Shown here: piece after piece, positions 7,974-62,996 of the stretch | How the letters are laid out: every line of letters begins with the position of its first letter | Position numbering within the stretch: position 1 is the stretch's first letter | Assembly: GCA_038046645.1 (NCBI GenBank) | Contig: JBBSVU010000016.1 | Coordinates: 652 to 64,651, forward strand | Reading direction: 5' to 3' | Length of the DNA: 64,000 nt | Origin: an archaeon | GTDB taxonomy: Archaea; Iainarchaeota; Iainarchaeia; Iainarchaeales; 0-14-0-20-34-12 | Notes under the pieces: model-generated | What the model saw: only the letters and a program-made list of their open reading frames with translations | Told to the model about the DNA's origin: nothing | Databases searched by the model: none | Position numbers and translations under genes: made by a program

Positions 7974-8933
7974 TTACTTAATATATCTAAGGTAGCCTGC
8001 AAAGAAGTTCTCAAATGTTTTTTTGTATTTTTCCAGGAAAAACCTCTCAAGATTTTTTGTATATCCTCTGTGAAAATCTTCTAGCGACTTAATATAAGAA
8101 TCCCTTTGTGTTTTTCTGATAATTAATGGGGGATAATTCTCATTAACCAACATAGCTAGGGCAATGAATCTGCCTACCCTGCCGTTGCCATCTGAAAATG
8201 GGTGAATCTTTTCAAAGTTCCCGTGGAATAATGCCGACAATTGTAATGGATGGATATTTTCGGTTTTTTCATATATTTCAATTAAGGCATTCATTTCATC
8301 ATGGACTTTTTCCGGCAGTGTTAGTTCTATCTGTGACCCAATTATCTCATTTGGAAATTGCTTATACCCTACCCTAGTGTCAATGTTTTTCATCAGCATT
8401 TTGTGCATTTTTATTATATCCTTCTCAGATATTTTAAACTTTTTTTTGAGGATTCTCTCCAGTACCTCTCTTGAATTTTTTGTTTCATATATCTCCCTTA
8501 AATCCTTGCCTTCTAATGACTTGCCTTCAAACATAATAATAGCAACATCTTTCAGTGTTAAGGAACTGCCTTCAATTGCATTTGATTCATATGTGAAGTT
8601 TGCAGTAAATCTGTCAAAAACATCCCTGAGCTGCTCTTTGGAAAAATTTTTTAATAATTCGCCGTAGTCTACCTTAATTCCTTCAATCTTTTTAATCTGG
8701 TCTTCTGAGAAAATTTCATCATTTTTATACATATTTACTGCATATGAAGCATTTGCCATCTTTTGCTTCTCAATAAAAAAAGATTTATTTTCTTTTGCCA
8801 ATTCATCAATGCTCTTATTTTTTGCATCAACAAGCTTCTGGAGTGAAATAACCTTGCCATTAGGCAAGCGTATCGATTTCATCAAATATGTGTATTCTTT
8901 GCCTTTAACTTTCTTAACTGATAAATAGGTCAT
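7974..8933 (-). CDS. Fic-family protein (AMPylase-type), class II-like with internal inhibitory motif
   Basis: Fic motif 'HPFSDGNGRVGR'. Upstream 'SNAIEG' fits the (S/T)xxxE(G/N) inhibitory-helix motif. Confidence 0.85.
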   Translation of the reverse strand: MTYLSVKKVKGKEYTYLMKSIRLPNGKVISLQKLVDAKNKSIDELAKENKSFFIEKQKMANASYAVNMYKNDEIFSEDQIKKIEGIKVDYGELLKNFSKEQLRDVFDRFTANFTYESNAIEGSSLTLKDVAIIMFEGKSLEGKDLREIYETKNSREVLERILKKKFKISEKDIIKMHKMLMKNIDTRVGYKQFPNEIIGSQIELTLPEKVHDEMNALIEIYEKTENIHPLQLSALFHGNFEKIHPFSDGNGRVGRFIALAMLVNENYPPLIIRKTQRDSYIKSLEDFHRGYTKNLERFFLEKYKKTFENFFAGYLRYIK

Positions 8934-9128: not shown

Positions 9129-12100
9129 TCAGTCCGTAGAGAGTTTATTTTCTCCACCAAAGTCAGGGTCTTTAGTAAGTTTCATCGTTTCCCAATTTAT
9201 TTCACAATACCTTTCTTTTTTGCCTGTAGCAATATAGCAGGAATACCCTGTACAGCATTGGCTATTTGCTGTGCATTGTTCATTATTACCTTTACATGTA
9301 ATCTCCATTCCTGCAAAGTCCTCATCTTTTTCAGGATCTTTAATTTTCATATCTTCGCCAAAGTCAGGATCATTTTCAGTAGGTATCTTCATTCCTGCAA
9401 AGTCCTCATCTTTTTCAGGATCTGGTTCAATAGATTGGCAATTTCCTTCAGCATCGCAACTCTGTAAAGGCCCTGCAGATTCTAAGTCCGTTGTAGCTGC
9501 AGGTGCATTCCCTTTTTCAATGTCCTGCATTAATTGTTCTGAATTCCATACAAGGCTAAATTCAGCTTCAGAAGGAATGACGCAAACGTGTTTTGTTTGT
9601 ATTAAGTCAAGGTGTTCTTTCAGGCTATTGACTTTCTTTGGTTCAGCTGTTATTAGTTTTACAATGCCGCCTTGTGGATCTTTTCCCTGTGCTTCACTTT
9701 TTTCTTTGCTGCCCCAAGATTGTGAGCTTAGGTATAACATCTCTTTTGCGCAGGTTATCTCTAACTTAGATGGAAAATTATTCTCCCAATCTGGCATGAA
9801 CAATACTGTTTTATGCATTCCCTGTTCCCCTTTCTTTAAATGTAAAAATGGTGCTTCAAAGCTTTCACAAGTTAATCCCTTGAACATGCCCTTGTCCTGT
9901 GATTTATTCAACCTAACTGTTTTTCCGCTGGGTGAAAGCCAATTTATAAATCCAGGGACATAATCCGCAGGCAATGGGCTATTGGCTGTTCCTAATAACC
10001 TTAATGCAATATCCTGCTTATTTGTATTTATGTTTAGCAATGTAGGAATAAATCTTTTCATCCTTATCACAAAGTCATTGCCCTCTAGCAGGTTTGTTAT
10101 CTTAATTAAGTCGCTTCCAGCAAATAGCGGAATACGGCTGTTATCAAAGGAACTGGCTCCATCTATCAGATTATTTACTGATTTATTGTCTTTTCCAGTT
10201 GCTTTTTTTAAATTAACAGTTGGGGTAAGAGGCACAAGCTGGCTTTCATCTATTCCAGTTCCGTATCCTTCTCTTTTATTGCCCATTTCTGTTCCTACAA
10301 ATCCGTCAAAAGGTATCAGCAATAAAGGATTCTTTGAATAGGATTTTTTCCCTGCATTGTCAATCTCGCTCAAATTATTGATTTTTCCATAGTATAAATC
10401 AATTACTGCATTTTCACCCCTAGTTATTTTGTTGTCCTTTGTTTTTTCGACCGCGAAATTAATCAACCTTAAATAGGTTCCACTTTCTATTGCATTCTTA
10501 ACCTCTTGGCTGAAATCTAGGTAATTATATGTTTTCTCTGCAGCCACTTTCTTTTGGTATGTTGAATAAACTTCTAAATCTATGTTATATGTGTTTTTGA
10601 AATCTGCCTTGAAATCAGCAGCTTCAAAATTATCGCCTATAAGATAAACTGAATTAAGCGGATTTATGGTTGCCCCATTAATTACTAAATCATCTGCATC
10701 AGCCCATAATTTGTTTTTTCCATTATCGCTTTGAAACTCAATATTGCTGGCATTCTTTGCAACAGTTATCTCTACAATATTTTTATTTAATTGTTCAAAG
10801 AAGCCTTTCCAGGGTGAGCCATAATCCTTTGTGCTGCAATTGCCACTTGTTGTGTTATTTTCAGTTATTGTTATACCCCCCACTGTTATATCATAGTTAT
10901 TTGGGTCCATTGAATAGCATCCGTTTGCAGCCCTTGTCTTGTTAATTGTAGACAATTGTAATGTTATTTCATAGAAATCATCCATTGACATTACAAATAT
11001 GCCTTCCTTGTAATCTGTGCTGAATAACCCTAAATCAATGAATTGCATTACAATTTTATTATTGCTTTTTTTAATGTCTTTTTTAATTATTATCAATAAA
11101 TCATTTTCGTTGTTATTTCCGCCATAACATTTATTTGCGTAATATTGCAATCTGCCTATGTTTAATGAGGGTATTGCAACGCTTGTAGTTGGTTTGGCAT
11201 ATTCTTTTTCATATTTATTACTGCTAAAGTTTCTGACCTGTTCCCAGTCAATATCCTCTATTACCTCTCTGCTTACATCACTAATTGTTTCTTTAATTGC
11301 TTCTGTACCTTTATATGCTGCTACCTTATCATATGTTAGGGCACATGAATTATTTTCACTTAATACTGCGGTTCCTTTTACATAATAGAGCCTTTTTTCA
11401 TTGGTTTTATGGTTCTGAATTATAACAGTGTTCTTCACAATAGGCACCAATTCAAGCAGAGTATCCATTCCTGTGCAATCTAAAGCCTCACAAATTGCTT
11501 TTACATGCTCTGCAGGAATCTTGCTTAAATTAGCCTGAAGTTCCTTTTGTTTTTCAATTGTGCTTAACATGAATTGTGCTGCATCACAGAAATAGTTGTT
11601 GCAAGTATCTGCATTTATATTCTTAACATCCCAATCCCACAATATTCTGTCTAACCCATATTTCTGATAAGCATCTTGGCCGGTTTCTGCAGTCTCCATG
11701 CCTGCACAGAACAAAGCGCTTTTTTTGACTGCTGGTTCACTGGCTGCAGCTGCAGCTTTAACCACAGCTTCTTTCCTTTCATCTAAATCAGCTTTTGCTT
11801 CTTCTTTCACTTCTTTCTTTATAATGCATTTGAAATCCTTGCATTCTTTTTTATCATCTGCACAGTCCTCATTAGTTATGCACTGCCCCTTTTTGCACAT
11901 TTTTTCATAACATACTTCGTCTGTTTTACATTCTGCTTTTTCTGTACAGCTGCCTCTTTTTTTGCAAAAATTATTTACACAGTTTTCGCCTGCAGGGCAA
12001 CAATTGTTGTTTGAACATTGAGTTCCCGGAGCTACTAAACAATATTTTTTCCCGCCTTCTTTGAATGGTTCGCAGATGTTTGATGCACATTGAGCTGCTG

Positions 12101-13415
12101 TTAAACAATTAGTTCCACATTGTAATTTTGGCACACATTTCTGTTTAGAACAGAAGTATCCTGCCTCACACAATTCATCCTTTAAGCATTCTACACACTT
12201 CAGTTTTGCACTGCAAACCCCAACCTCTATTGTTTCTGATTGTGTGCCCCAATATTGGCAACCATCATTCTCTTTTTTGCCTTCACATGGCTCTTTTGGT
12301 TTTTCTTTAGCTTTTTCAATACAACTGCCATTATCACATTTTTCAGTTTCCTTACAATGTGCATCCCCCAAACAAAGCACGCATTGCAGTTCAGCATCGC
12401 AGTATCCAGTAATTTCTAGTTCTTTATTTATTTCACAAACATTTCCTGCGCTGACACAAGGGCTTGCGGTTTTTTCCCCTAAATATCCTGCCTGTGCAAG
12501 CCAATCATCAGCAAGTGCTTCTGATACATAAGTATTAAGCAAAAGAAGCGTTGATGGCTGCCCTGATTTTTGATAAGCAGTTTCATCCAACCTTTTGAAA
12601 AACATTCCCATGACATAATCATATTTTTTGCAGAATAGCCTGCTTTTTCTGATTATGGTTTGTTCCTCAGGGTATTTGAATTCAGTGTCATTCCTTACCA
12701 AAAGCCCGTCATATACTATGCCTTCTCCATTTCTATTCCAGCAATTAAACATATACCTTACCGAATCTTCATAATTTGGGCCAGCCATATCCTTATTTTC
12801 TTCAACCTCGCTCTTGTCTGGTTTTGTTTTTAAATAATCATAAAACGGGATTGTGAAATTTATTGCTGTATCAGTGCCATTTTTATTTACTGCGGCAGTC
12901 ATTGAATATTGTGAAACAGATGCTTTTACAAACCTCAATACTTTATCTTTTGGGTTTGTTTCATCAGCAGCACAAGCCAGCATCTTTATTTCTTCCTTTT
13001 TCTTTCCTTTTACTTCAGCAGCATGCTCTGTTTTGTACTGTTCAATAAGGCTTTCTACATAGGGATCATACTTTCCGCCACTTTGGGCTCCCATTTCGCA
13101 AAAATCAAATATAATTTCCTGTACCTTCTGTTGATTTAGCGTTAACAATACCAAGGAAAGTTCCTTGCTAGCCTTGTCTGTAATTGATATTTTAACCGTG
13201 TTATCAATTTCATATCCTAAATTGCTTGGATTGACAATTGAATAGGTAGGCAATAACCTGCTCTCTCCTTCTACTAATTGGCCAAATTCAGTAGGATATG
13301 TATTGCCCGCATTTACGTTAACTAATGCTTTTATCTGCCCTCTGCCGTAAACATCCCCAATAAATACACTAAAAAATAGTACTAACAATAACCCAATCCA
13401 AACCTTATTCTTCAT
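9129..13415 (-). CDS. Giant secreted cysteine-rich surface protein (1428 aa), paralogue of 53291..57223
   Basis: Signal peptide 'MKNKVWIGLLLVLFFSVFIGDVYG'. Cys-rich EGF-like tract at about aa 330-545. A ~720-aa core is co-linear with the other giant protein ('FCAGMETAETGQDAYQKYGLDRILWDWD', 'NKREGYGT', 'LVWNSEQ'). Confidence 0.8.
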   Translation of the reverse strand: MKNKVWIGLLLVLFFSVFIGDVYGRGQIKALVNVNAGNTYPTEFGQLVEGESRLLPTYSIVNPSNLGYEIDNTVKISITDKASKELSLVLLTLNQQKVQEIIFDFCEMGAQSGGKYDPYVESLIEQYKTEHAAEVKGKKKEEIKMLACAADETNPKDKVLRFVKASVSQYSMTAAVNKNGTDTAINFTIPFYDYLKTKPDKSEVEENKDMAGPNYEDSVRYMFNCWNRNGEGIVYDGLLVRNDTEFKYPEEQTIIRKSRLFCKKYDYVMGMFFKRLDETAYQKSGQPSTLLLLNTYVSEALADDWLAQAGYLGEKTASPCVSAGNVCEINKELEITGYCDAELQCVLCLGDAHCKETEKCDNGSCIEKAKEKPKEPCEGKKENDGCQYWGTQSETIEVGVCSAKLKCVECLKDELCEAGYFCSKQKCVPKLQCGTNCLTAAQCASNICEPFKEGGKKYCLVAPGTQCSNNNCCPAGENCVNNFCKKRGSCTEKAECKTDEVCYEKMCKKGQCITNEDCADDKKECKDFKCIIKKEVKEEAKADLDERKEAVVKAAAAASEPAVKKSALFCAGMETAETGQDAYQKYGLDRILWDWDVKNINADTCNNYFCDAAQFMLSTIEKQKELQANLSKIPAEHVKAICEALDCTGMDTLLELVPIVKNTVIIQNHKTNEKRLYYVKGTAVLSENNSCALTYDKVAAYKGTEAIKETISDVSREVIEDIDWEQVRNFSSNKYEKEYAKPTTSVAIPSLNIGRLQYYANKCYGGNNNENDLLIIIKKDIKKSNNKIVMQFIDLGLFSTDYKEGIFVMSMDDFYEITLQLSTINKTRAANGCYSMDPNNYDITVGGITITENNTTSGNCSTKDYGSPWKGFFEQLNKNIVEITVAKNASNIEFQSDNGKNKLWADADDLVINGATINPLNSVYLIGDNFEAADFKADFKNTYNIDLEVYSTYQKKVAAEKTYNYLDFSQEVKNAIESGTYLRLINFAVEKTKDNKITRGENAVIDLYYGKINNLSEIDNAGKKSYSKNPLLLIPFDGFVGTEMGNKREGYGTGIDESQLVPLTPTVNLKKATGKDNKSVNNLIDGASSFDNSRIPLFAGSDLIKITNLLEGNDFVIRMKRFIPTLLNINTNKQDIALRLLGTANSPLPADYVPGFINWLSPSGKTVRLNKSQDKGMFKGLTCESFEAPFLHLKKGEQGMHKTVLFMPDWENNFPSKLEITCAKEMLYLSSQSWGSKEKSEAQGKDPQGGIVKLITAEPKKVNSLKEHLDLIQTKHVCVIPSEAEFSLVWNSEQLMQDIEKGNAPAATTDLESAGPLQSCDAEGNCQSIEPDPEKDEDFAGMKIPTENDPDFGEDMKIKDPEKDEDFAGMEITCKGNNEQCTANSQCCTGYSCYIATGKKERYCEINWETMKLTKDPDFGGENKLSTD

Positions 13416-14040
13416 TAGGTAATCCCTCCCCTATTGCTAAGCAATTTTCTTCTATTGTAACTATATAATCTTTTAACTCATAATAGTTAATAAATGCTTC
13501 GTCTTCATCTTCTAGGTAATTTTCAAGCCCTAATTCCTGATTTTCTGTAGGGTGCGCTACTACATATTCTTCTAATTTTTTATTGTTCTCAAGGACTAAA
13601 TTATAGGCATTTTCATTATCTTGGATGGTGTTATCTAAAAGATTAAGGTTCTCGCATAATCCTTTGCTGCTTAATTTCAGCAATGTTTCTTCACCCTTTT
13701 TCAGCTTTGACTGCACTTTTAATTCATCAAGCAAAGCAACATACAAATCAACCAAATCAGCCAGTGCTTTATTGTCAGCGTTTTTTGCCTGCAAATCCAG
13801 CAAGTCTGCCTTTGCTGTTTCCACTTTTTCTTCACTTAACACAGCCAATTTGGATTCGCTGACTGTTTCAAAAGCTACTTCATTGCTTGCAAGAATATTA
13901 TTTGCAGAATTTGCCAATGCTGCAAACCCTTTTTTATCCGCAGTCTGCCCTTTTGGCAGGTTCCACAAAACATAAACTGCGGCAATAACCACAATTATTG
14001 CCAATATCCCATATACAAATCTTTTTTCCATATATACCAT
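13405..14040 (-). CDS. N-terminally anchored coiled-coil protein
   Basis: Single TM segment 'FVYGILAIIVVIAAVYVLW' followed by a helical acidic region. Overlaps the giant gene start by 11 nt. Confidence 0.6.
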   Translation of the reverse strand: MVYMEKRFVYGILAIIVVIAAVYVLWNLPKGQTADKKGFAALANSANNILASNEVAFETVSESKLAVLSEEKVETAKADLLDLQAKNADNKALADLVDLYVALLDELKVQSKLKKGEETLLKLSSKGLCENLNLLDNTIQDNENAYNLVLENNKKLEEYVVAHPTENQELGLENYLEDEDEAFINYYELKDYIVTIEENCLAIGEGLPNEE

Positions 14041-14079
14041 CCTTCCTTGAGAATTGTTTAGTTGTTTTATATATTACTT

Positions 14080-15231
14080 TTATTTAATATAAATATATTT
14101 GTTTCTCAGCATAATGAGTTTTTTGATTAAACTGGCAGTATATAACTTGTTTTTTGGCTTATTGACCTTAAGCTTAGTTGTTTTGCTTTTTTGTGCTTGC
14201 CCTGACCCTGCGGTATTGTTATTCTTTTGTGTTTGATTATTGCCTGCAATAGTTACCAGACCAGTGCTATTCTGTGCTGAGTTTGTAGAAGTAGTTGCAG
14301 TGTTTTGTGTTGAGCTTGAATTAGAATTAGTTGCATTTGCCGTAGTGCTGCTTTGTGTTGAAGCTGAATTATTATTTGCCGTATTTGTTGTACTACTATT
14401 ATTTTGAGCCAGTGTAGGATTTGAAGTATTTTCAGTATTTTGAGTTTGGGTATTATTCCCAGTATTTACATTAGCATCATTTGTTTGATTTCCAGTATTT
14501 GAATTATTATCCGTATTTTGTGTTTGCCCTGATGTGTTATTATTTACATCATTGTTAGTTGCACCATTATTTACATCGGCGTTATTTGCATTATTGTTTG
14601 TATCTTGAGCAGGGTTTTCTGGTTGTGCAACTACCGAATTTTTATAACTTGCATAATGCCCGACTATCACCCTATCAATATAGGTATTGGAATAAGCATT
14701 AACCGAACCAGCATCAACATCCTGCCAGCCGTATCTGTATGCACTGGCTGTTTTGTATAAATCATTTGAATAATAAGTCAATAGGGATTTCAAATACCAG
14801 CAGCCTCGGTCGATATTTTCTTGAGCATTGTATGCATCATTCATAATAGGGGCATCTTCATATTTTGCTGTTGAGGGCATATTCCATTGCCAATCCACTG
14901 TTGACACTGTTGGAACCCCGGCAATCCATTCGCCTGTCAATTGGAATAAACCTTTTCCATAATATTGCCCAAACCAGTTGGTTTCCCCTACCTCGTATGA
15001 TGTTTTTTCAGATTGATTCACTGCATTTGGATTGAAGTCAGACTCCAGTTTTATGATGGCAGCGATAAAATAAGGGTCATCTATGCCATATTTTTCTGTG
15101 CAAATACTTACTATATCATTCCAATATACTTCAATAGGTTCGCTTTCAATCTTTGCAGGTATTTGATAATCATAAGCAAATCCGCCTGAAAGCAATGCCA
15201 GCAGAAAAATGGCCGTTATATATAGTTTCAT
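14080..15231 (-). CDS. Secreted SLT-type lytic transglycosylase-like protein with N/T/S-rich C-terminal stalk
   Basis: Signal peptide. SLT pattern 'LESDFNPNAV' ... 'GKGLFQLT' ... 'AYNAQENIDRGCWYLKSLL' ... 'ASAYRYGW'. Confidence 0.7.
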   Translation of the reverse strand: MKLYITAIFLLALLSGGFAYDYQIPAKIESEPIEVYWNDIVSICTEKYGIDDPYFIAAIIKLESDFNPNAVNQSEKTSYEVGETNWFGQYYGKGLFQLTGEWIAGVPTVSTVDWQWNMPSTAKYEDAPIMNDAYNAQENIDRGCWYLKSLLTYYSNDLYKTASAYRYGWQDVDAGSVNAYSNTYIDRVIVGHYASYKNSVVAQPENPAQDTNNNANNADVNNGATNNDVNNNTSGQTQNTDNNSNTGNQTNDANVNTGNNTQTQNTENTSNPTLAQNNSSTTNTANNNSASTQSSTTANATNSNSSSTQNTATTSTNSAQNSTGLVTIAGNNQTQKNNNTAGSGQAQKSKTTKLKVNKPKNKLYTASLIKKLIMLRNKYIYIK

Positions 15232-34086: not shown

Positions 34087-34614
34087 TTAAATAGCTTTAT
34101 TGCCGGGCAAAGGTTCTTTGTCTTTTAATATAAAAACAAATCTGTCTTTCTGAAGGACAAAGAGCTCTTTGCCATCTTTTTCATATAAATTGCATAAATC
34201 CTTGTAATCAACCCTTCCCTTGTAATCATATCCTTCATTTTCAAGTTGGGAATTCATCTGCACAACAAGGGTAGCTGCAGAAGTTGAATCTCCTGAGTCC
34301 ACAATAAACATCTTTTTTGAATCAAACCAAATCAAGCCAACATTTCCAGTCATGGTATTATTGTATTCCATTTTAATGTTTGCTGTACCATATATGTCAA
34401 ATATCTGGTCAAAAGATTCAAGTGTTTTATCCTGCAGCACATCAAAATAACTGATTGATTTTTTCTGCTTTTCAATGCCTGCATCTGCTTTTATGAACTC
34501 TTGCGCAATAACTTCTCCTTGGACTGTTGCTTTTGGCAAAAAGGAACAGCCGCTTAACAGCAATGCCCCAAAAAGCAAAGAAATCAATAAAATCAAACTT
34601 AGGGTATTTTTCAT
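34087..34614 (-). CDS. Putative lipoprotein
   Basis: Lipobox-like 'ALLLSGCSF'. Overlaps the stop of the upstream giant gene by 4 nt. Confidence 0.5.
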   Translation of the reverse strand: MKNTLSLILLISLLFGALLLSGCSFLPKATVQGEVIAQEFIKADAGIEKQKKSISYFDVLQDKTLESFDQIFDIYGTANIKMEYNNTMTGNVGLIWFDSKKMFIVDSGDSTSAATLVVQMNSQLENEGYDYKGRVDYKDLCNLYEKDGKELFVLQKDRFVFILKDKEPLPGNKAI

Positions 34615-37600: not shown

Positions 37601-37760
37601 GGTAATCTGAAGGTGCAGTTGTTTGATATATGTCATCAAAGGAATATCCGGCACCATCATTGCTGCCCCAAGGCAATGTCATTGTTTCTGCTGAACTAAA
37701 AATAGATAAAAATACAAGCAGAATAAAAGTTAAAATTATCCTAATTGCAGCCTTTCCCAT
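34611..37760 (-). CDS. Giant secreted cysteine-rich protein with helical Cys-free C-terminal ~320 aa
   Basis: Signal/anchor 'MGKAAIRIILTFILLVFLSIFSSAE' from ATG 37760 (track start 37817 is a TTG). Three 'C.S..QCSSGNC.YVCC.AGK.CC' modules and 'CGDG.C....E.CS.C..DCG.C' motifs. Confidence 0.75.
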   Translation of the reverse strand: MGKAAIRIILTFILLVFLSIFSSAETMTLPWGSNDGAGYSFDDIYQTTAPSDYQGCFLKIYADDTYGGYTQYGENPECGYCDITTSAKSCNNQTTCEVSISAGETISAVFNGDSSCAGCGWKYNFKKYGYCGDGECGPKAYDQGTCVNGTKQTETCSNCPSDCGACQEAKKANGSQCSSNSQCSSGNCRYVCCQAGKTCCEYNSDCSAGQTCNTSYHYCVTSAPTTYCGDGSCNGSETCSSCAGDCGSCPVTLKSDGATCSSGSQCSSGNCNYVCCEAGKTCCEYNSDCSSGQACNTNLHYCTASSGTKQYCQACSNDNECSSVYCGDFGTGGKKCANPNVDTYCCPDGFYIENFQHGVDCCDYCSDAQGALLTKKCVNHKCVNEKETEETILKSNGESCTSNPECGSGNCNYVCCQAGKKCCNMDLDCVLGENSMPDAVCDNSQYYCVSKEEKYTETAPFWLSVDGLNAVECENDVSLGIIKIKDTKAAAWIKDGSRVMLFIPGGAVKYSAYESDIIIKVNSTEMTENIVVLDEIIHKWLYPSIKEGQTTNVKCQRYKEEYGGDAQKKADEIIEKGPQKEVNCGDGTCNVDAGENCSTCQKDCGCTGAGQCCISDSSIMHSDSPTGCANSGDIVWEYEKERVFCCEGKIGGQGTDACCVNSDCPSGQNCVSEMYGATEIKLCVTSAGCSTDNDCSINTYCVGGECMDKPECTGTIYSPNSSTCCAGNLIPKGQTCTSKKLSINPQEVLGLDVTGMTADAVLQYDNDNSLLSYFGLNLTGYTENAHNWREIADYELRKGKRSLQNSKKIGIFNVVGRGLNAVYKTIGFVETIKNLPEQLDKLANIKTVEELKNNAPLLIEFTDSMGSVSEVVSAGTNALGIKITAEDHKFFNALKDAAFWTAGTISSGGLSLVVDATNALNGDNAKQSILYETEVGELGMFASIQADIAQKMAEKENPTINDTKSYFYSIKKFLKLKKMEVALRYRDDVSIYKDNPDALTKIFTFVEGEYEINKKIAESKADADKMTKMYDIMEKNVDDMMKSYGVELQ

Positions 37761-37803
37761 GCCAAATTTAAGTGCTTTGTAATATATATTTTTTTGCAAT
37801 GGA

Positions 37804-37974
37804 TTATTGCAAAACAAAGGTTATTTCATTCAGAAAAAACCCAAACATTATCAAAAAACCCAAAGGTTGGAATATTATTTCTTCCATTATGCGGTCTGCA
37901 AGCAGCGGGACAGCAGCAAAATAAAAAAATGCAGTGATAAATGCAGCCAAGGTTATCCTTTTTATTATTCCCAT
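37804..37974 (-). CDS. Possible 56-aa two-TM membrane peptide (not in ORF track)
   Basis: Manual translation: MGIIKRITLAAFITAFFYFAAVPLLADRIMEEIIFQPLGFLIMFGFFLNEITFVLQ*. A G-rich stretch precedes the ATG. Confidence 0.3.
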   Translation of the reverse strand: MGIIKRITLAAFITAFFYFAAVPLLADRIMEEIIFQPLGFLIMFGFFLNEITFVLQ

Positions 37975-48708: not shown

Positions 48709-49944
48709 TTAACAAAGCTCCCCTTCAATTGCGCTCAATGCAGCAGTTATTGGCGATCCCAAATAAATCTCAGAATTTGGGGATCCCATCCTTCCGCAGA
48801 AATTCCTGTTTTGTGTAGATAAACAAACTTCTTTGTCCCCCAAAACGCCAGAGTGCCTTCCCAAGCAAGGGCCGCAGCCAGCATTGCATACAATTGCCCC
48901 GGCATTGAGGAAAATATCCATAAGTCCTTCACCCATTGCTTTCTGATATTCCTGAACTGTTGAAGGAACAACAATCAATCGTGCATTTTTGTGCACACTT
49001 TTTCCCTTCAATATTTTTGCAGCCAATTCCAAATCCTCCAACCTTCCATTAGTGCATGTGCCTATTACAATTTGATCCAATTTTATCCCCTTAGCTTCTG
49101 AAACAGCCTTAACATTTTTAGGTTCATGCGGGCAGGCAACAAGCCTTTCCAATTCATTTAAGTTTATTTCAAATAAAGATTCATATTTTGCATTTTCATC
49201 TGCTTTCATCTCCCCAACATTTTTTCCTTTTTCTTCAAAGAACTTCTTTGTTATGCTATCCGAAGGGAATAACCCGATTTTGGCACCGCATTCAACGCTC
49301 ATGTTTGCAATTGTTATCCTGTCTGAAATTGCCATGTCAGCAACAGCGTTTCCTGAATATTCTACTGATTTATACGCAGCGCCATTTGCCCCTAATATCC
49401 TGATTATTTCAAGCGCAATATCCTTAGAAACAATATCTTTTCCTACTTTTCCATTCATTTCTGCCTTAATTGTTTCAGGAACCATGAACCAGTTTTTCCC
49501 AGTTGCCCAAGATACCGCAATGTCTGTTGAACCCATTCCAATTCCCAGGGAAGAAACAGCACCAAATGTGCAGGTGTGGGAATCTGCCCCGGCAATTAAA
49601 GTATTTGGCAAAGCAATGCCTTCATCTATCAGCAAATGGTGGCAAATGCCCTTCCCATAGAAAATGTCCAATATTGCATGTTTCTCTGCAAATCCCATTA
49701 TTTCTTTCTGCATGTTTGCCGCCTGCACGCTTGCTGCAGGGACAACATGGTCAAAAACAAAAACAACTTTTTCCGCCCTGATTTTAAATCCCTTTAATTC
49801 ATTGAATGATTTTATTGCAAGTGATGTAGTAGCGTCATGGGACATTATTTTGTCAACGTTTGCAATTACTGTGTCGCCAGCAAAAGCCATCCTGCCTGAT
49901 TTTTCTGAGAATATTTTTTCAACAATGGTTTGCCCATTATCCAT
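48709..49944 (-). CDS. hacA: Homoaconitase/isopropylmalate isomerase large subunit
   Basis: 'DKIMSHDATT', 'GADSHTCT', and 'GTCTNGR...NAGCGPCLG'. Confidence 0.85.
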   Translation of the reverse strand: MDNGQTIVEKIFSEKSGRMAFAGDTVIANVDKIMSHDATTSLAIKSFNELKGFKIRAEKVVFVFDHVVPAASVQAANMQKEIMGFAEKHAILDIFYGKGICHHLLIDEGIALPNTLIAGADSHTCTFGAVSSLGIGMGSTDIAVSWATGKNWFMVPETIKAEMNGKVGKDIVSKDIALEIIRILGANGAAYKSVEYSGNAVADMAISDRITIANMSVECGAKIGLFPSDSITKKFFEEKGKNVGEMKADENAKYESLFEINLNELERLVACPHEPKNVKAVSEAKGIKLDQIVIGTCTNGRLEDLELAAKILKGKSVHKNARLIVVPSTVQEYQKAMGEGLMDIFLNAGAIVCNAGCGPCLGRHSGVLGDKEVCLSTQNRNFCGRMGSPNSEIYLGSPITAALSAIEGELC

Positions 49945-51325
49945 TTAAAATCACCATTGTGTTTGTTTTCTGCACATTTTCCATGCTTCTTATTTTATCC
50001 ACAAGCAGGTTCAATTTCCTTACAGAATCGGTTTTTGCATGCAGGCATAAATCGTATTCTCCAGCTATTTCTAAGCAGTTTGTTATCTCAGGGTGCTTTG
50101 CAAATCCATTTTTCAAATCATTGATATAGCCGTCATGGTTTGCAGTTACAAATACCAATGCCTGTGCGTTCCTCGTATTCTCGCGTGATATTCCCAAAAC
50201 ATTCTCAATTATTTTTATTACATCAAACTCTGTGCAGAATTTCCTGTTCCTATTTTTTATTTGTGATATTATTTCCTTTATCTGCGCATCATTTGCTTTA
50301 TGCCCTAGCTTTGAAGTAAAATGCTTCACTGCAGCAGTCCCTGCAAATTTGTCCACGAGTATTGCCCTTTCCCTCCCAAATTCTTCAGGCCTTAGGAATT
50401 CATAAGTAAGTGGATTTTTCAATACTGCCGAAGTATGTACGCCTGCCTTGTGTGAAAATACATTTTTCCCAACAATCGGCTTGTGGTTCGCATTGAATAT
50501 TCCAGAATATCTTTCAACCATTGCGCTTAATTCAGGAAGCATTTCTATCTTCCAGCCATTTTTCACATTATAGATTTTTTTTAGGGAAACAGCCAATTCA
50601 TCCAATGTAGTAATTCCCGCCCTTTCCCCCAGCCCATTTACCGTAACATCAATCAAGGTTATTCCGGCTTCATATGCGGCAATTGCATTTGCGGTTGCTA
50701 ACCCCAAATCATTATGGCAATGGATATGCAAAGGAAGTTTTGTTGATTTTACCAGCCCTGAAACAAGTTCTGATGTTTTTCTTGGGGTTAAATTTCCTAC
50801 AGTGTCTGCAATGCTCCCTCTTGTTGCACCAGCAGCCTTTGCAGTGTTATATACTTTTGTTAAAAAATTAATATCAGTTCTGCTTGCATCTTCCGCAGTA
50901 AACCTTATCTTCAGCCCATAATTTGAGGCATATTCAATGACTTCCGTAATTTTTTCAAGAGCTTTTGCCCTTGGCATGTTGAATTTGTATTTCAGGCTTA
51001 TATCGGATGTGCCCCAAAAAAGGCCAATCCATTCTGTATTCATCTGTGCAACAAGGTCAATATTTTCCTTTGTTGCTAGGGAATGGCAAAGCAGCGGTGT
51101 TTTCAATCCAAGATTTGATACCTCTTTAATTGAGTTTTTTATGTCTTCGGAAACGCCAGGATTTCCTACCTCGATTATGTCAACACCAAATTTAGATAAT
51201 GCAGTGGCAATTTTTATCCTTTCATCGCTGTTGAATGAGACGCCTGCTGTTTGTTCCCCTTCCCTTAGCGTGCTGTCCAATATTTCAACCATAAAACCAC
51301 TTGCCAAATAGTGGCCCTCTACCAC
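49937..51325 (-). CDS. Homocitrate synthase (LeuA/NifV family) with C-terminal RAM-like domain
   Basis: 'ILDSTLREGEQTAGV' and 'HCHNDLGLATANA'. C-terminal ~78 aa 'ALVFVTAN...HPEITNCLEIAGEYDLCLHAKTDSVRKLNLLVDKI..MENVQKTNTMVIL' match the Lrp/AsnC ligand-domain pattern. Confidence 0.85.
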   Translation of the reverse strand: MVEGHYLASGFMVEILDSTLREGEQTAGVSFNSDERIKIATALSKFGVDIIEVGNPGVSEDIKNSIKEVSNLGLKTPLLCHSLATKENIDLVAQMNTEWIGLFWGTSDISLKYKFNMPRAKALEKITEVIEYASNYGLKIRFTAEDASRTDINFLTKVYNTAKAAGATRGSIADTVGNLTPRKTSELVSGLVKSTKLPLHIHCHNDLGLATANAIAAYEAGITLIDVTVNGLGERAGITTLDELAVSLKKIYNVKNGWKIEMLPELSAMVERYSGIFNANHKPIVGKNVFSHKAGVHTSAVLKNPLTYEFLRPEEFGRERAILVDKFAGTAAVKHFTSKLGHKANDAQIKEIISQIKNRNRKFCTEFDVIKIIENVLGISRENTRNAQALVFVTANHDGYINDLKNGFAKHPEITNCLEIAGEYDLCLHAKTDSVRKLNLLVDKIRSMENVQKTNTMVILNG

Positions 51326-51732
51326 TTTTTGAGGACCATAATAGTGTCTGTTGCCTTTATCTCTTTTTTTGCCCTTAATTCATCAATAAATGAGTTCATT
51401 TCATCGATTGCCTGGAATGAGCAAATTAATACGGCATCGAATTCACCCGAAGTTTCAAATAGCTCATTAATCTCAGATAATTGTTTTAATCTGGGATAAA
51501 ACTCAGTTGCATTTATTTGTGGTTCAACCTTTATGCTTACCAAGCATCTGATTTTATTATCATCGCGCAGGACTGCAGTATAGCCACGAATGTATTCCTT
51601 TTCAAGGTTCTTTATCCTGTATCTCACAGCAGATTCTGACAAGCCAAGTCCTTTAGCTATTTCAGTATTTGTTATTCTTGCATTCTTGGTCAAAAGCCCT
51701 ATTATTTTGCGATTTAGTTCATCCATAATCAT
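51319..51732 (-). CDS. Lrp/AsnC-family transcriptional regulator
   Basis: 'LNRKIIGLLTKNARITNTEIAKGLGLSESAVRYRIKNLEKE' plus a RAM domain. Overlaps the homocitrate synthase start by 7 nt. Confidence 0.8.
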   Translation of the reverse strand: MIMDELNRKIIGLLTKNARITNTEIAKGLGLSESAVRYRIKNLEKEYIRGYTAVLRDDNKIRCLVSIKVEPQINATEFYPRLKQLSEINELFETSGEFDAVLICSFQAIDEMNSFIDELRAKKEIKATDTIMVLKKW

Positions 51733-53290: not shown

Positions 53291-56200
53291 ATGAAAAAAC
53301 TTTTGATTATCTGCATTTTGATGCTTTTTCCTTTAATTTCGGCTGAGCTAGGGGTTTTTGCCGAAAATACTTCAACAGCATCCAATGTTTCTGGATATAC
53401 TTTAATAATTAAGGGCCTGAATTTAGGGGATTTACCAAAAGATAATTCTACTTATGAATATAATTTCTATGAAAGCGTTATGGAACGTTTGGTAAAAGGT
53501 GCAGAAGGCAAAGAGGCAGCAATATGTGTTCCACATCTTTCCTGTGAAACTAAGCCTTGCACAATGAAACAAAGATGTGATAATAGGCTGTATGCTGTAG
53601 GTTTGGCAAAAAAAGAAATTAGTTCACACAAAACTATTTTTAATGCAATAAATGCTAAAAAAGGTTCATTGCAGCCTTATTTGAAGCATGATGCTTCTTC
53701 ATTCATAGCTGCGGTTGTAAGAAATGAATCCTATTTTGACCCGAATAATCATTCAGATAGAGGAGATACCTCCTGCGGATTGATGCAGGTTTCAATAGGT
53801 TATTATTGCCCAGAACGGCAGAAGCAGGGAAAGAAGTGTGCTGGCTGCAACTGCAAGGATCCAGAAATTGCAAAGGATTGCTGGAAAGGCTGGAATGACC
53901 CAGAAGAAAATCTTGATGTTGGAATTAATACTGCTTTGCTGACTTGGGCTAAATCAGCAGAAAGCAAACCAGGGTGTGAAAAAGTCCTTGATTCTTACAT
54001 TGCAGGGCTTGAAGATTATAAGATTACGTTAAGGGAAGTGATGATGGCTGCAGGCCATAATTGGGGCGGAGCCTTTATAACAAAATGTATTGTAGATGAG
54101 CCACAGAAAACAATTACCTTGATTTCAGACAAACTTTCTAGTGGCAGAAAATTAGCCTATGCTGGAAAATTGCAATATCCTGCAGGCATAATAAGTTCAA
54201 CTATATTATATCAGCTTGCAATGGCAGGCCTTGAATTCAATGCAGAAAAAATGGATGAAAAGCCGGCAAATTTATTCTGTTCCGGTTTTGACAATGCAGA
54301 AACCGGTGCATTGGCATATAAAAAATATGGTTTTGACCGCATATTATGGGATTGGGACTTTGAAAATATTACTTCAAATACCTGTGAAAATAAATTCTGC
54401 GATGCAACCCAATTTTTATTAAGCATGCTTGCAAAGGACGAATATGTGTCACAGGCTTTGAAAAAAATCCCCTCTGAACATATTAAAGGCATTCTGCAGG
54501 CAGAGCCTGATTTAGAAAATGCAACAATGCTGAGTGATTTACTGCCCATAACTAAAGAAACAGTTTTAGTTAAGGATAATGCATTGGGTGCTGATAAAAC
54601 ACAAATTTATTTCCTTTCAGAAAACAGTTTGCTTGTTCCAAGCAATGATTGTAATGTTCAAATATCTGACCCTAAAAATGGTTTGGTTAAAGAGCCATTT
54701 GAGGTAGCATCTGATTACCTAAGATCTTGTTTAACCCTAGACAAAGTGCGTTCTTTTGATGAATCAGTTTATCTGGCAAACACGGTTAAAGGTAAGGATA
54801 TAAAATTAGGTTCATGTTCACTTGCTGAAAGGCTTGGTTCCCTCCAGTATTCTGCAAAAAAATGCGGCAATAATGAAAATGATATTCTGATTCTTGTCAG
54901 GCCAAATGCAAATGACAATCCTGTTTTCAGCAAGCTTGTTGATTCCGGCGTATTCAATAGCATTTCAAGGAAGACTTCAGTTGTAGCTTATGTTTTTACC
55001 TTGCCTGAACTCGAGCTACTAATTTTCAATCTGTCAAATGCCTTAAAAAATAAAGATTGTGAAAATCCCAATCTTTTTGGCACAACAATAGAGCTTTCAG
55101 TAAATGCAAAGGATTGTTTCCAAGAGAAAGAACTGTTGATTAGTGATTTCTTTACTGCTTTGCAGACAAACATTACAGGCATTCAAAGGGCAGTTAGATA
55201 TGATGCCGCAGAACTTATGTTAGATAGCCAAGGCAATGCCCTTAAAAAATACATTGCAGAAAATGCTTCAAACCTTGCATTTTTAGGTACAGAAATAATC
55301 CCAAGTAGCAAGGTTTTTCTCATTGGCGATAATTTTACTTCAGAGGATTTCCTTTCAGATTTTGAATTAGCCTATCCTTCTTATGATTTGAACAGATATA
55401 AAATAATCAATGAAAATGCTGATTCAGCATCAGGCCAAGGTCCGGTATCAGGCCAATCTGTTGATTCAACATTGAATCAATTAGAATCAGGGCAATATTC
55501 TGCCAGCATTGATTTGCCTGTTAAAATAAAAGATAATTCAGTAGTTGAGCCTGATGCAGTATCTTTTAAAGAAATCAATTTTGCTCTCGAAAAAACACTG
55601 GCTCAAATTGATACTGGCAATGGGAATGAATCTGCCTATGCTTCAAACCCTTTCCTGAAACTAGCATTTGATGGCATGCTCGGGATAGGCAAGGGGAATA
55701 AAAGGGAAGGCTATGGAACATCCAGCAAAGGTTCACTCACGCTTACTGAATTATATTCAACTCCTGAAATAATTTCAACATCTGGATTTGCGGTTTCTTC
55801 AGAGGATAATCCTGATGCAGATTTAAGTGACATACTGTCAGGAAAGAAAATATTTTCTTTGGAACAGGAAGGCTCTAATTATAATATTTCTTTTATTGAA
55901 CAAATACCCACATTGTTTTCATTGGATACAAATGTTTCACAAACAATTGCATTAAGATTTTTGGAAGATTCTTCTGTATTTGAAAAACCGCTTAGCTTGA
56001 ATTTTTTAACGCCAAAAGGCACATCCATAACCCCAACTATTGGAATCCCAAATAAATATTCCTACTGCGGCAATGTGCAGGGCAATGTTTACCTTATGCC
56101 AACAAAAACTGTTGGTAAATATCAAACAATGTTTTATATTCCTACACAACAGTCAGCATCTTTGCCAAATAAGGTTGAGATAACTTGCGCAAGGGATAAA

Positions 56201-57223
56201 ATAAAATTAAGCACTTACTCCTTGGGAAGCCCTTTGGCTGCTGAGCAGAAAGCATTATCTGCAAGCCCGCAAGCAGGTACAATTAATTTAATCACCGCCA
56301 GCCCGCAAAAAATTTCCAGCCTTTTAAATTATTTTGATATGATTAAACAAAAGAAAACGTGCTTTGTTCCATCTGCTACTGGTTTTGCTTTGGTTTGGAA
56401 TTCTGAACAAATAATGGTTGAGATTGCAAATGCTTTCAAAAATGATGTTCAGTTAGCACAAGAATCTGCAACTGGTTCTGAAGCTTATCAGGAAAATATT
56501 TGTGATAGTTCAGGCAATTGCTGGTCATCTTATGTTCCAGGCATTATTGAAGTTGATTGTGCTGATGGTGTTGGACCTGACTGCATTTTAACTCTTAATG
56601 AAATGCTTAAAAATTGTCCAACAGCTGAAGAAATCGAACAATTTAATTCAGATTTTGAAATAACTTCAGATATTCCTTTTGAAGAATATGCCTGCGAGAA
56701 TGGCAAGAACCCAAAATATTTTGGTGTTGGGTTAGATTCACATTTAGTTCTCTATCAAATGTTGAGTTTAATGAACTATTTGGAATTCTCTAAGCCCTTG
56801 CCTTGGACAGATAAACAATTATATTACTGGTTCAGGGATAGCGTAGAAAATATTCACCTAGATAGCTCAACTGAGTATCCCTTCTATTTTGATGATTCGA
56901 TTCATTTTAGATTATCTGATATGGGGAGAAAATGGAATGGCCAATGGATAGATGAACAACTAGATGGAGGTATGGCAAACTTAATTATACTGGCAGCCCA
57001 TGAGGCAAGGCATGCCCAAAAAAATCATACCTGTGATTTTTTATCAGAAGTAAATAATTATATTCGTGATTTATCTTTGGGAGAGTTAGGTTCTTGGGGC
57101 GTACAATATTATCTCGAGAAATGGATGGCAGATTATTTATCTGAAAATCTGCAAACCTATGGTGCTAGAAAAAGTTTGGAATACCGTGCAAAGGATATTC
57201 TAAAAACAAGGTTTTGTGGCTGA
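53291..57223 (+). CDS. Giant secreted protein: N-terminal SLT-like lysozyme domain, conserved giant-protein core, C-terminal HExxH region
   Basis: Signal peptide. SLT pattern 'VVRNESYFDPNNH...SCGLMQVS...PEENLDVGINTAL'. The core is co-linear with 9129..13415. 'HEARH' at nt 56999-57013. Confidence 0.8.
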   Translation: MKKLLIICILMLFPLISAELGVFAENTSTASNVSGYTLIIKGLNLGDLPKDNSTYEYNFYESVMERLVKGAEGKEAAICVPHLSCETKPCTMKQRCDNRLYAVGLAKKEISSHKTIFNAINAKKGSLQPYLKHDASSFIAAVVRNESYFDPNNHSDRGDTSCGLMQVSIGYYCPERQKQGKKCAGCNCKDPEIAKDCWKGWNDPEENLDVGINTALLTWAKSAESKPGCEKVLDSYIAGLEDYKITLREVMMAAGHNWGGAFITKCIVDEPQKTITLISDKLSSGRKLAYAGKLQYPAGIISSTILYQLAMAGLEFNAEKMDEKPANLFCSGFDNAETGALAYKKYGFDRILWDWDFENITSNTCENKFCDATQFLLSMLAKDEYVSQALKKIPSEHIKGILQAEPDLENATMLSDLLPITKETVLVKDNALGADKTQIYFLSENSLLVPSNDCNVQISDPKNGLVKEPFEVASDYLRSCLTLDKVRSFDESVYLANTVKGKDIKLGSCSLAERLGSLQYSAKKCGNNENDILILVRPNANDNPVFSKLVDSGVFNSISRKTSVVAYVFTLPELELLIFNLSNALKNKDCENPNLFGTTIELSVNAKDCFQEKELLISDFFTALQTNITGIQRAVRYDAAELMLDSQGNALKKYIAENASNLAFLGTEIIPSSKVFLIGDNFTSEDFLSDFELAYPSYDLNRYKIINENADSASGQGPVSGQSVDSTLNQLESGQYSASIDLPVKIKDNSVVEPDAVSFKEINFALEKTLAQIDTGNGNESAYASNPFLKLAFDGMLGIGKGNKREGYGTSSKGSLTLTELYSTPEIISTSGFAVSSEDNPDADLSDILSGKKIFSLEQEGSNYNISFIEQIPTLFSLDTNVSQTIALRFLEDSSVFEKPLSLNFLTPKGTSITPTIGIPNKYSYCGNVQGNVYLMPTKTVGKYQTMFYIPTQQSASLPNKVEITCARDKIKLSTYSLGSPLAAEQKALSASPQAGTINLITASPQKISSLLNYFDMIKQKKTCFVPSATGFALVWNSEQIMVEIANAFKNDVQLAQESATGSEAYQENICDSSGNCWSSYVPGIIEVDCADGVGPDCILTLNEMLKNCPTAEEIEQFNSDFEITSDIPFEEYACENGKNPKYFGVGLDSHLVLYQMLSLMNYLEFSKPLPWTDKQLYYWFRDSVENIHLDSSTEYPFYFDDSIHFRLSDMGRKWNGQWIDEQLDGGMANLIILAAHEARHAQKNHTCDFLSEVNNYIRDLSLGELGSWGVQYYLEKWMADYLSENLQTYGARKSLEYRAKDILKTRFCG

Positions 57224-57272: not shown

Positions 57273-57560
57273 ATGGCAGAGAAGAACCGAAAAGTTGATT
57301 CAGAAAAGAATTCCAAGCATTTGGAATTCCTTGCAGATGTAAATACTAGAAATTTCCTTTTGAAAACCCCGACAGAGGAGCTTGAGATTATTCTGAAATA
57401 TGTCCGGGATTTTGGTTTTACTGATGCAGAATTAAATAAAAACCCAAGGGTTCTTTACATTGCTGCATTAAACCTTGTAAACAAAAGCATTGATGAAATT
57501 AATCCTGCAGTAAACCAGAAGATGGTTAATTTGAGGAATAAAATAAGGAAAATGCAGTGA
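57273..57560 (+). CDS. Hypothetical helical protein (95 aa)
   Basis: ORF only. No secure motif. Confidence 0.4.
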   Translation: MAEKNRKVDSEKNSKHLEFLADVNTRNFLLKTPTEELEIILKYVRDFGFTDAELNKNPRVLYIAALNLVNKSIDEINPAVNQKMVNLRNKIRKMQ

Positions 57561-61727: not shown

Positions 61728-62996
61728 CTATACTTTGTCTTCTTCTATGAGCCACTTCCAGAGTTTTTTATATGTTATCCTTTTCCCAGCTATATTTTCC
61801 TTAGCCTCATAATCTCTTGTAATTACAATCAATTCCTTCTTTTTCCCATCTAAGCCAAATTCTTTTGCAGCTTCAATCAATGCTTTAAGTTCACGATCTT
61901 TTGTTCTTTTATTGTCCAAAGCATATGTGACCTGCATGAGTTTCTTGACAGTTAACCCCTGTCTTATCACGAAATCTACTTCAAGATTCCCAGCTGATTT
62001 ATAATATGAAATTTGTCCTAAAGGGTTGAGTTTTCTTCTAAGTTGAATAAATACAGCATTTTCATACAGTTTTCCTAAATCTTTTTTTCCTCTTGATGCA
62101 TAAAAGAATCCAGTATCGCCAAAGTAAACTTTTCTTGGGTAGAGTGATTCGTCTTTTATTTTTGTTGAGAAAACTGGCACAAAAAAAGAAAGATAAGCAG
62201 TTTCAAATAACTGTTCCAGCTCAAGCAGTGTGCTTTTGCTTATTTTATGGCCTATGCTTTTCATGACATTCTCTGATTTAGTTGCCGAAAAAAACGTTGT
62301 CCCTATAAGTTGTGCTGAAAAATCAGATACTGTTTTTAGCGGAACTGTTGAAAGAGCAGCTATGTCCAAAGAAATTATGGAATTCATATATTCTTGGATA
62401 GTACTAACCTTGTTTTCTGATAAAGCAATTTCAGGGAATCCTCCATATACTAAAAATTCTTCTAAAGCATGCTCTACCTTTCCTATTTCCCTAGTTGTTT
62501 CTGGCAATTTTATATTTTTAAATTCTAGAAATTCTTTAAATGAAAGCGGAAAAAGTTCAAAGTATGAAATTCTGCCGCGCAATGCTTTTGGCGGAAATCT
62601 TGATAATTTATTGAGTGATGAGGTTGTTATTATGTGTACATTTTTCATTTCATTTATTCTATGTAGCCAGTGTTCCCAGTCCTTTGTAGTAGTAACCTCA
62701 TCTAACAACAGCCATTCTGCATCTGGTGTTTGTTTAAGAATTGTATCTAATGCTTGAGGAATCTGCAACCTATTATCTTCAAGATTTGCATACGAGGATT
62801 TTTTCCCAAGCGATATTAATTTTTTATATGTAAGCATTAGAACAGAGCTTTTTCCAGCCCTTCTTATTCCAGTAATTGACACAATCCTATTTTTAGATTC
62901 GGCTATTGCTTTATCTATGTTGAATATTCTGTCTTTAAGGGGCTTATTGATTGCAGTGTTTTGCCATTCAATAAGAGTATCTTTTATATCGTCCAT
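61728..62996 (-). CDS. AAA-type ATPase with DUF4143-like domain (paralogue of 6474..7736)
   Basis: Walker A 'GIRRAGKS' and Walker B 'WLLLDEV'. Its stop codon directly abuts the trmB-like stop (61727/61728). Confidence 0.8.
   Translation of the reverse strand: MDDIKDTLIEWQNTAINKPLKDRIFNIDKAIAESKNRIVSITGIRRAGKSSVLMLTYKKLISLGKKSSYANLEDNRLQIPQALDTILKQTPDAEWLLLDEVTTTKDWEHWLHRINEMKNVHIITTSSLNKLSRFPPKALRGRISYFELFPLSFKEFLEFKNIKLPETTREIGKVEHALEEFLVYGGFPEIALSENKVSTIQEYMNSIISLDIAALSTVPLKTVSDFSAQLIGTTFFSATKSENVMKSIGHKISKSTLLELEQLFETAYLSFFVPVFSTKIKDESLYPRKVYFGDTGFFYASRGKKDLGKLYENAVFIQLRRKLNPLGQISYYKSAGNLEVDFVIRQGLTVKKLMQVTYALDNKRTKDRELKALIEAAKEFGLDGKKKELIVITRDYEAKENIAGKRITYKKLWKWLIEEDKV

Follow-up and report, generated by a model that had tools for sequence, protein, structure and literature searches.

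Gene and protein architecture

Positions 53291..57223 (+) of a 64,000-nucleotide (nt) stretch of archaeal DNA, here called the window, hold a gene of 1310 open codons for a predicted secreted multidomain protein of 1310 amino acids (aa). NCBI lists the protein as MEK6973382.1 under the label 'MAG: hypothetical protein AABW72_05065 [archaeon]' (MAG, metagenome-assembled genome). A first-pass annotation, made from the sequence, had read it as a surface giant in which an SLT lysozyme domain, a core shared with a second giant of the window and a C-terminal HExxH metallopeptidase region are combined to breach the murein sacculus. Comparing the window with the contigs L001, L002, L008 and L014 and with proteins from homology searches (P-numbers below), we found two new elements: the C-terminal domain, called HEARH in the following, belongs to an undescribed but widespread domain family, and the central core is new as well. 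Beyond the view of the first-pass annotation, the C-terminal region proved to be a widespread conserved domain, the SLT assignment borderline by profile, and the genome archaeal.

The reading frame starts with a predicted signal peptide (aa 1-19, MKKLLIICILMLFPLISAE; 53291..53347, +), as already proposed. It is the sole segment with a Kyte-Doolittle value >1.6; in a hydropathy scan, the N-terminal side of the cleavage site, MKKLLIICILMLFPLISA before E, was the only hydrophobic segment of the whole protein. The signal peptide is kept in the ortholog in L001 after moving the start of that gene upstream. The gene call for this ortholog (P0002; L001 5707-5737) begins at an internal Met, which truncates the signal peptide, and the upstream ATG gives back MKKLWIICILMLFPLISA. 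Together with 33 Cys and 15 N-x-S/T sequons, these features of the translation support a secreted, Cys-rich and modular protein. No membrane or cell-wall anchor, including a C-terminal one, was found in the 1310 aa, and the designation as a surface giant was not borne out.

Three modules follow the signal peptide. The first is a lysozyme-like or SLT-like module with a Cys-rich insert (aa ~125-305; 53663..54205, +), recognized by a borderline Pfam SLT match, by its motifs and by the ratio of nonsynonymous to synonymous substitution rates (dN/dS). The core module of ~750 aa comes next (aa 324-1079; 54260..56527, +), identified by BLASTP to a paralog encoded at 9129-13415. The C-terminal HEARH domain (aa ~1100-1310; 56588..57220, +), a predicted zincin-like hydrolase, was defined from homologs, invariant residues and a structural model. 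Its HExxH motif HEARH, read from the translation, occupies aa 1237-1241 (56999..57013, +), exactly where the first-pass annotation had placed it.

This combination of modules is very rare: a search of 5.8 billion clusters yielded one ortholog of the protein, plus the ortholog of its paralog. For the complete architecture, the earlier remark that no multidomain family of this kind is known is correct. The ortholog (83-87% identity) lies in the syntenic contig L001. A third word-index homology search with a combined SLT and core profile yielded only the protein itself, its ortholog and one fragment. Between the two orthologs, dN/dS ranges from 0.09 to 0.44 along the gene, with all modules under purifying selection. 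At a distance of 50 nt 3′ of the gene follows an open reading frame (ORF) of 95 aa (57273..57560, +) that lacks a signal peptide, has no Pfam match and is 85% identical to an ORF at the same position in L001.

The C-terminal HEARH domain

An exhaustive search with the protein returned 364 matches, nearly all of them on the C-terminal 210 aa. The matching proteins are mostly stand-alone and 250-500 aa long with signal peptides or lipoboxes, and their named sources are Anaerolineae/Chloroflexi, Actinobacteria and one Hermodarchaeia archaeon. Conserved throughout are the segments CPT..E, PLPWT, CC, HEARH, H-T-C, D and GAWGVQYY, with six conserved Cys. HExRH and a third His are kept in 247 of 250 homologs, the Arg of HEARH being almost invariant, and 133 of these 250 fit the pattern HExxHxxGxxH exactly. 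The candidate metal set of the 1310-aa protein consists of H1237-E-A-R-H1241, H1246 and D1260, the latter two invariant or nearly so.

Structure prediction from an alignment of 89 rows gave a confident model (predicted local distance difference test, pLDDT, 89.2; predicted template modeling score, pTM, 0.88), in which HExxH is located at the end of helix 148-160, after a three-stranded sheet. The best Foldseek matches of this model had an E-value of 0.73 and a template modeling (TM) score of 0.20 in PDB, and an E-value of 0.017, a probability of 0.97 and TM scores of 0.38/0.41 in BFVD, where the match was an IrrE-like phage protein. The weak top matches in both libraries were repeatedly HExxH peptidases: M1, ecarin, ZmpB, aminopeptidase N, MMP9, IrrE-like, SprT-like and M10.

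The C-terminal 210 aa are thus a genuine conserved, independently folding domain and the best-supported new element of the protein. Our reading is that of a divergent zincin-like hydrolase, in which an HExxH on a helix and a putative third metal ligand are found. The metallopeptidase of the first-pass annotation is supported as far as the HExxH lies in a conserved domain with an invariant H-E-x-R-H...H...D set, a confident model and weak zincin neighbors, but not as a member of any peptidase family.

In other proteins the domain is fused to RTX, LamG, Calx-beta, Big_2 and DUF11 domains, and PDB sequence searches with three larger members of the family matched only a Calx-beta domain. Nothing ties the domain to peptidoglycan, and the proposed service of the HExxH module in murein breaching found no backing. 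The neighborhoods of bacterial HEARH genes showed no recurrent informative partner except an SdrD_B-domain protein beside P0160, on both contigs carrying P0160, and a literature search on the motif gave nothing relevant. The gene of the closest stand-alone member, P0009 (40% identity), directly follows that of a Cys-rich repeat protein of >1297 aa with a Stig1-like match (L008 2-4844). We considered this L008 giant as a relative of the core and rejected it as unrelated.

Between the orthologs (window 56588-57220, L001 8941-9639), the HExxH module is only 62% identical, with a dN/dS of 0.44 and a dS of 0.60 compared to ~0.31 for the rest of the gene. The low identity and the doubled dS suggest that the C-terminal module was replaced through recombination.

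The lysozyme-like module

Family 1 lytic transglycosylases are defined by the motif set Glu-Ser, GLMQ and AYNxG. Motifs of these types are present in the expected order in the N-terminal module, with the candidate catalytic E146-S147 followed by G163-L-M-Q166, D204-P-E-E-N208 and A254-G-H-N-W-G259. The peptides RNESYFDPNNH, CGLMQVS and PEENLDVGINTAL, on which the first-pass annotation had based its lysozyme domain, were located at aa 144-217. Four members of the module are known: the 1310-aa protein, its ortholog, P0036 and a 1052-aa protein encoded in L014. Invariant in their alignment are the Glu-Ser pair, the segment S-C-G-(L/I)-M-Q-V, the Asn of the PEEN-like segment and A-A-x-x-N-W-G; the last motif of the L014 member, AASYNWG, is near the classical AYNxG. 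This module also has the lowest dN/dS of the gene between orthologs, 0.09. A pattern scan for it in JGI metagenomes detected no relatives.

The whole protein scored 16.7 bits with the Pfam SLT profile, and isolated or spliced fragments scored 19.9-22.0 bits, at a cut-off (gathering threshold, GA) of 21.3 bits. Equivalent partial matches to the same profile segment were obtained for P0036 (11.9-12.8 bits) and the L014 protein (18.6 bits). The module also matched the SLT protein encoded in the window itself (BLASTP E-value 3e-4, hhalign E-value 2.3e-4). A profile of three sequences found c-type lysozymes in PDB at an E-value of 0.012, with pairwise matches including hen lysozyme. In the lysozyme alignment (hen numbering for Glu35 and Asp52), E146 pairs with the catalytic Glu35 and GLMQV with GILQI, whereas Ser161 takes the position of Asp52, unlike the Glu35/Asp52 pair of C-type lysozymes (GH22). 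From motifs and profiles, the module is probably a divergent single-Glu domain of the lysozyme superfamily, nearest to glycoside hydrolase family 23 (GH23), and its membership in SLT as curated is borderline.

The core module and its gene neighborhoods

The co-linearity of the core with the giant at 9129 that had been noted before was confirmed. Residues 324-1079 align with residues 564-1328 of that protein over 805 columns with 31% identity (BLASTP E-value 1e-85), and all three peptide pairs quoted earlier lie in the alignment. Searches of Pfam, NCBIfam and PDB gave no match to the core, and pattern scans in GTDB species genomes, JGI metagenomes and IMG/VR found no relatives. In the exhaustive search the core was present in only a handful of proteins, among them the giants P0013 (2998 aa) and P0017 (2653 aa). 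In both giants it forms the C-terminus and is preceded by immunoglobulin (Ig)-like (Big_1), CarboxypepD_reg, SdrD_B and macroglobulin-like domains. The residues that do not vary in the core are for the most part Cys, Gly, aromatic residues and Asp, with no catalytic-looking motif. The core might serve in target binding, as the first-pass annotation had supposed, or as a scaffold or recognition module.

The paralog is a predicted secreted giant of 1428 aa (9129..13415, -), with an N-terminal region (aa ~1-300), Cys-rich EB-like repeats (aa ~319-529) and the core (aa 564-1328). NCBI names it 'EB domain-containing protein', and its ortholog P0003 lies in L002. Directly upstream and overlapping by 11 nt is the gene of a small acidic protein of 211 aa with an N-terminal membrane anchor (13405..14040, -; 81% identity in L002). 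It is preceded by the gene of a stand-alone secreted SLT-domain protein (14080..15231, -), which scores above the Pfam cut-off (E-value 2.8e-9, 37 bits) and is named 'transglycosylase SLT domain-containing protein' by NCBI. The order of this apparent cluster (9129-15231, -) is SLT protein, 211-aa anchored protein and giant, the SLT gene being two genes upstream of the paralog. In the syntenic region of L002, the SLT gene is absent, and the small protein and the giant are retained beside adenylate kinase.

A further arrangement was found in L014 (16982-22522), where a core-bearing giant is followed by the 1052-aa secreted protein, a protein of 197 aa and a second core-bearing gene. The 1052-aa protein carries the lysozyme-like module (tblastn E-value 1e-12), and its C-terminus resembles GDSL/SGNH esterases (LGDSIT ... 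DQLHP; Pfam E-value 1.4e-4, below the cut-off). The 197-aa protein, whose gene immediately precedes the second core gene, is a homolog of the 211-aa anchored protein of the window (E-value 1e-12). In three loci, the core is thus associated with a lysozyme-like or SLT enzyme, once by fusion and twice as a neighbor. From the fused gene, the paralog cluster and L014 it follows that the core, the small anchor protein and a lysozyme-like enzyme recur together.

Host and surrounding genes

The host genome is archaeal, judged by marker genes in the window: diphthine synthase dph5 (TIGR00522, 228 bits at a cut-off of 114), Trm5b, DUF63, TrmB and LysW. A scan of GTDB genomes with homoaconitase did not place the archaeon further: its best matches were Omnitrophota proteins of 45% identity, owing to the peptide-pattern method. 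The gene sits among housekeeping genes, beside the operon of an ATP-binding cassette (ABC) transporter. Directly upstream lies a lysine cluster with LysW and homocitrate synthase, and methionine-cycle enzymes are encoded in the window as well. The homocitrate synthase (49937-51325, -) has a C-terminal Lrp/AsnC (LysM-type) ligand-binding domain and is followed by a separate AsnC-type regulator (51319-51732).

Elsewhere in the window are two large ORFs, one of 1068 aa without a Pfam match (34611-37817, -) and one of 927 aa with only an N-terminal match resembling esterases and alpha/beta-hydrolases (29938-32721, +). Two AAA_14/DUF4143 ATPase genes and one Fic-domain gene occupy 6474-7736 (-), 61728-62996 (-) and 7974-8933 (-), and the equivalent region of L002 contains several PIN, RHH and PemK toxin-antitoxin genes.

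Proposed function and alternative explanations

We consider the chances about even that an uncultured archaeon secretes the protein as an envelope-degrading enzyme, rich in disulfides and built of three modules, which is likely aimed at bacterial walls. The module at aa ~125-305 would adopt a lysozyme-like fold with E146 as its single catalytic Glu. A single-Glu mechanism is suggested because of the Ser at the position of Asp52 in c-type lysozymes, and glycan strands would therefore be cleaved as by a lytic transglycosylase or a goose-type muramidase. The C-terminal module would bind zinc via H1237, H1241 and H1246 (or D1260), with E1238 as the general base hydrolyzing a peptide or amide bond, and the 750-aa core would serve as a non-catalytic scaffold or target-recognition module. 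Since archaea, including the producer, make no murein, the most likely substrate would be the wall of neighboring bacteria, either in an attack on them or for feeding on wall material. A role in attacking cell walls is a plausible hypothesis.

Several results weigh against this reading. For the lysozyme-like module, the Pfam SLT match is restricted to profile positions 13-43 (31 of 117) and became no longer when the Cys-rich inserts were deleted in silico. Adding the fourth member to the three-sequence profile weakened the lysozyme match to an E-value of 0.18. The SLT lysozyme domain of the first-pass annotation is thus supported by its motifs, conserved in four members, and borderline by its profile, which at 16.7-22 bits straddles the cut-off over that short segment. 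Structure prediction by segment, which the same annotation had advised, succeeded for the C-terminal domain, whereas the AlphaFold2 model of aa 97-1085, from an alignment of only 8 rows, had a mean pLDDT of 40 with the first 439 residues <50. At this quality the model cannot be used and gives no fold evidence for either the lysozyme-like module or the core. Domain searches with hidden Markov models, likewise advised, gave the partial SLT match at the cut-off and no family match for the core and the C-terminal domain.

For the HEARH domain, no match was found in Pfam, NCBIfam and the PDB sequences, nor to any peptidase profile, and Foldseek with the C-terminal model found nothing at an E-value of 1e-3, our significance threshold (E≤1e-3), or a TM score of 0.5 in PDB or BFVD. 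Across the family, the third His follows the motif at a spacing of between 4 and 8 residues; it is 4 in the 1310-aa protein, whose HEARHAQKNH is one residue short of the metzincin HExxHxxGxxH and has no Gly. No wall- or peptidoglycan-binding domain occurred in any fusion of the HEARH family seen; a role as peptidoglycan peptidase has no direct support because the fusion partners are never wall-binding. In the 1310-aa protein itself, no LysM, PG_binding, SH3 or similar domain was detected (Pfam, E≤1).

A first alternative is a target other than murein, which we regard as unlikely but as the best of the alternatives. The producer could be an episymbiotic (DPANN-like) archaeon that attaches to an archaeal host and opens its surface, or it could remodel its own surface. 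In either case, the substrate of the lysozyme-like module would be a different beta-linked polymer of amino sugars, and the HExxH module would cleave S-layer proteins or others of the cell surface. Core and lysozyme-like module both have relatives that come from 0.2-µm-filtered and aquifer groundwater metagenomes, and such samples are rich in small symbionts. The occurrence of the core on giant proteins rich in Ig-like domains, typical of adhesins, the conserved small membrane-anchored partner beside core-bearing genes, the lack of any peptidoglycan-binding domain in the HEARH family and the departure of the C-terminal half of the lysozyme-like module from canonical SLT point in the same direction. 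However, enzymes of lysine synthesis (LysW/AAA pathway) and of the methionine cycle do not suggest a strongly reduced symbiont repertoire, the E-S/GLMQ/AxxNWG motifs are those of murein-cleaving enzymes, and a canonical SLT gene is part of the paralog cluster. Furthermore, the combination with an SGNH esterase-like domain in the L014 relative would suit O-acetylated murein, as judged from Ape-type esterases.

Still less probable, in our view, is a scavenger, an enzyme set free to break down the wall debris (necromass) of bacteria as a source of amino sugars and peptides, with no part in killing. In favor of it, the protein has no anchor and no recognizable delivery system; its gene lies in a housekeeping context next to a transporter operon, and the protein lacks the wall-binding domain that defines the weaponized archaeal hydrolases in PMC12352652. 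An elaborate core of 750 aa shared with giant surface proteins is, however, hard to explain for a simple digestive enzyme, and the faster evolution of the C-terminal module with its doubled dS is more typical of conflict-related modules.

We judge it improbable that the protein has no enzymatic activity and serves at the surface or in adhesion, with the lysozyme-like region as a degenerate glycan-binding module and the HExxH as a structural metal site. Neither domain reaches a curated enzyme-family threshold over its full length, and the core, with its invariant Cys, Gly, aromatic residues and Asp, has no catalytic appearance; but the Glu proposed for catalysis and the whole HExRH...H...D set do not vary even between very divergent homologs, and the strongest purifying selection acts on the lysozyme-like module. 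A polymorphic toxin with a variable C-terminal module and a small downstream gene was rejected, the downstream ORF having no recognizable immunity features and an archaeon needing no protection from a wall hydrolase.

Beyond the envelope-degrading enzyme as such, we tentatively put forward a wider possibility that joins two proposals: that the HEARH proteins of Chloroflexota, Actinomycetota and several archaea are secreted zinc metallopeptidases that make up a family not described before and have a fold variant of their own, and that the core and its membrane-anchored partner form a new surface system by which groundwater archaea, with divergent lysozyme-like enzymes, breach bacterial walls.

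Both questions concern archaeal-bacterial conflict and the classification of peptidases. The evidence of archaea attacking bacteria is recent and built on proteins of already known domains; the 1310-aa protein, if the proposed function is true, would extend this antibacterial repertoire to architectures of unannotated modules. With hundreds of sequence clusters and a confident fold outside of every curated family library, the HEARH domain is a target for biochemistry and could be given a family model of its own. That the core is repeatedly linked to lysozyme-like enzymes gives a testable handle on the otherwise opaque giant surface proteins of groundwater metagenomes.

Comparison with known systems

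Zincins, including the metzincins (HExxHxxGxxH) and minimal zincins such as IrrE/ImmA (M78) and SprT-like proteins, share with the HEARH domain an HExxH at a helix end after a small beta-sheet and a third invariant His, here 4-8 residues further on. In contrast to them, the HEARH family shows no profile or significant fold match, has a near-invariant Arg, a variable His spacing and six conserved Cys, and is extracellular. The HExxHxxxxH of the 1310-aa protein further differs from metzincins by the missing Gly.

The gp13 protein of phage phi29 combines a lysozyme-like N-terminal domain and an M23 metallopeptidase C-terminal domain for dual-activity wall breaching. A glycan-cleaving lysozyme-like and a zinc-type peptidase-like module would likewise be united on one polypeptide in the archaeal protein, here as predicted from sequence and in line with the logic of the first-pass annotation. 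Unlike in gp13, the peptidase-like module is unrelated in sequence to M23 or any Pfam peptidase family, a core of 750 aa lies between the two modules, and the producer is a cell, not a virion.

As in family 1 lytic transglycosylases (Pfam SLT PF01464, CAZy GH23), Glu-Ser, GLMQ, a DPEEN-like segment and A-x-x-N-W-G occur in the right order. The 1310-aa protein departs from SLT/GH23 in that only the first third of the profile matches, with a score at the cut-off, the C-terminal half is unrecognizable, and a Cys-rich insert after GLMQ is more like the beta-hairpin region of c-type lysozymes. 'Large lytic murein transglycosylases' (GH23) were reported in Woesearchaeota MAGs, and our protein resembles these in being archaeal and, as predicted, secreted (PMC9723730).

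Modular peptidoglycan hydrolases are secreted by archaea and kill bacteria (Strock et al. 2025, PMC12352652); their definition in that study combined a known catalytic domain with a known domain for cell-wall binding. The 1310-aa protein is far larger, and since neither domain type scores above threshold, it would be missed by a survey of this kind. It resembles these hydrolases in its predicted secretion by an archaeon, in a putative wall-hydrolase module, in its patchy distribution and in domain shuffling with bacteria, the HEARH domain occurring mostly in Chloroflexota and Actinomycetota.

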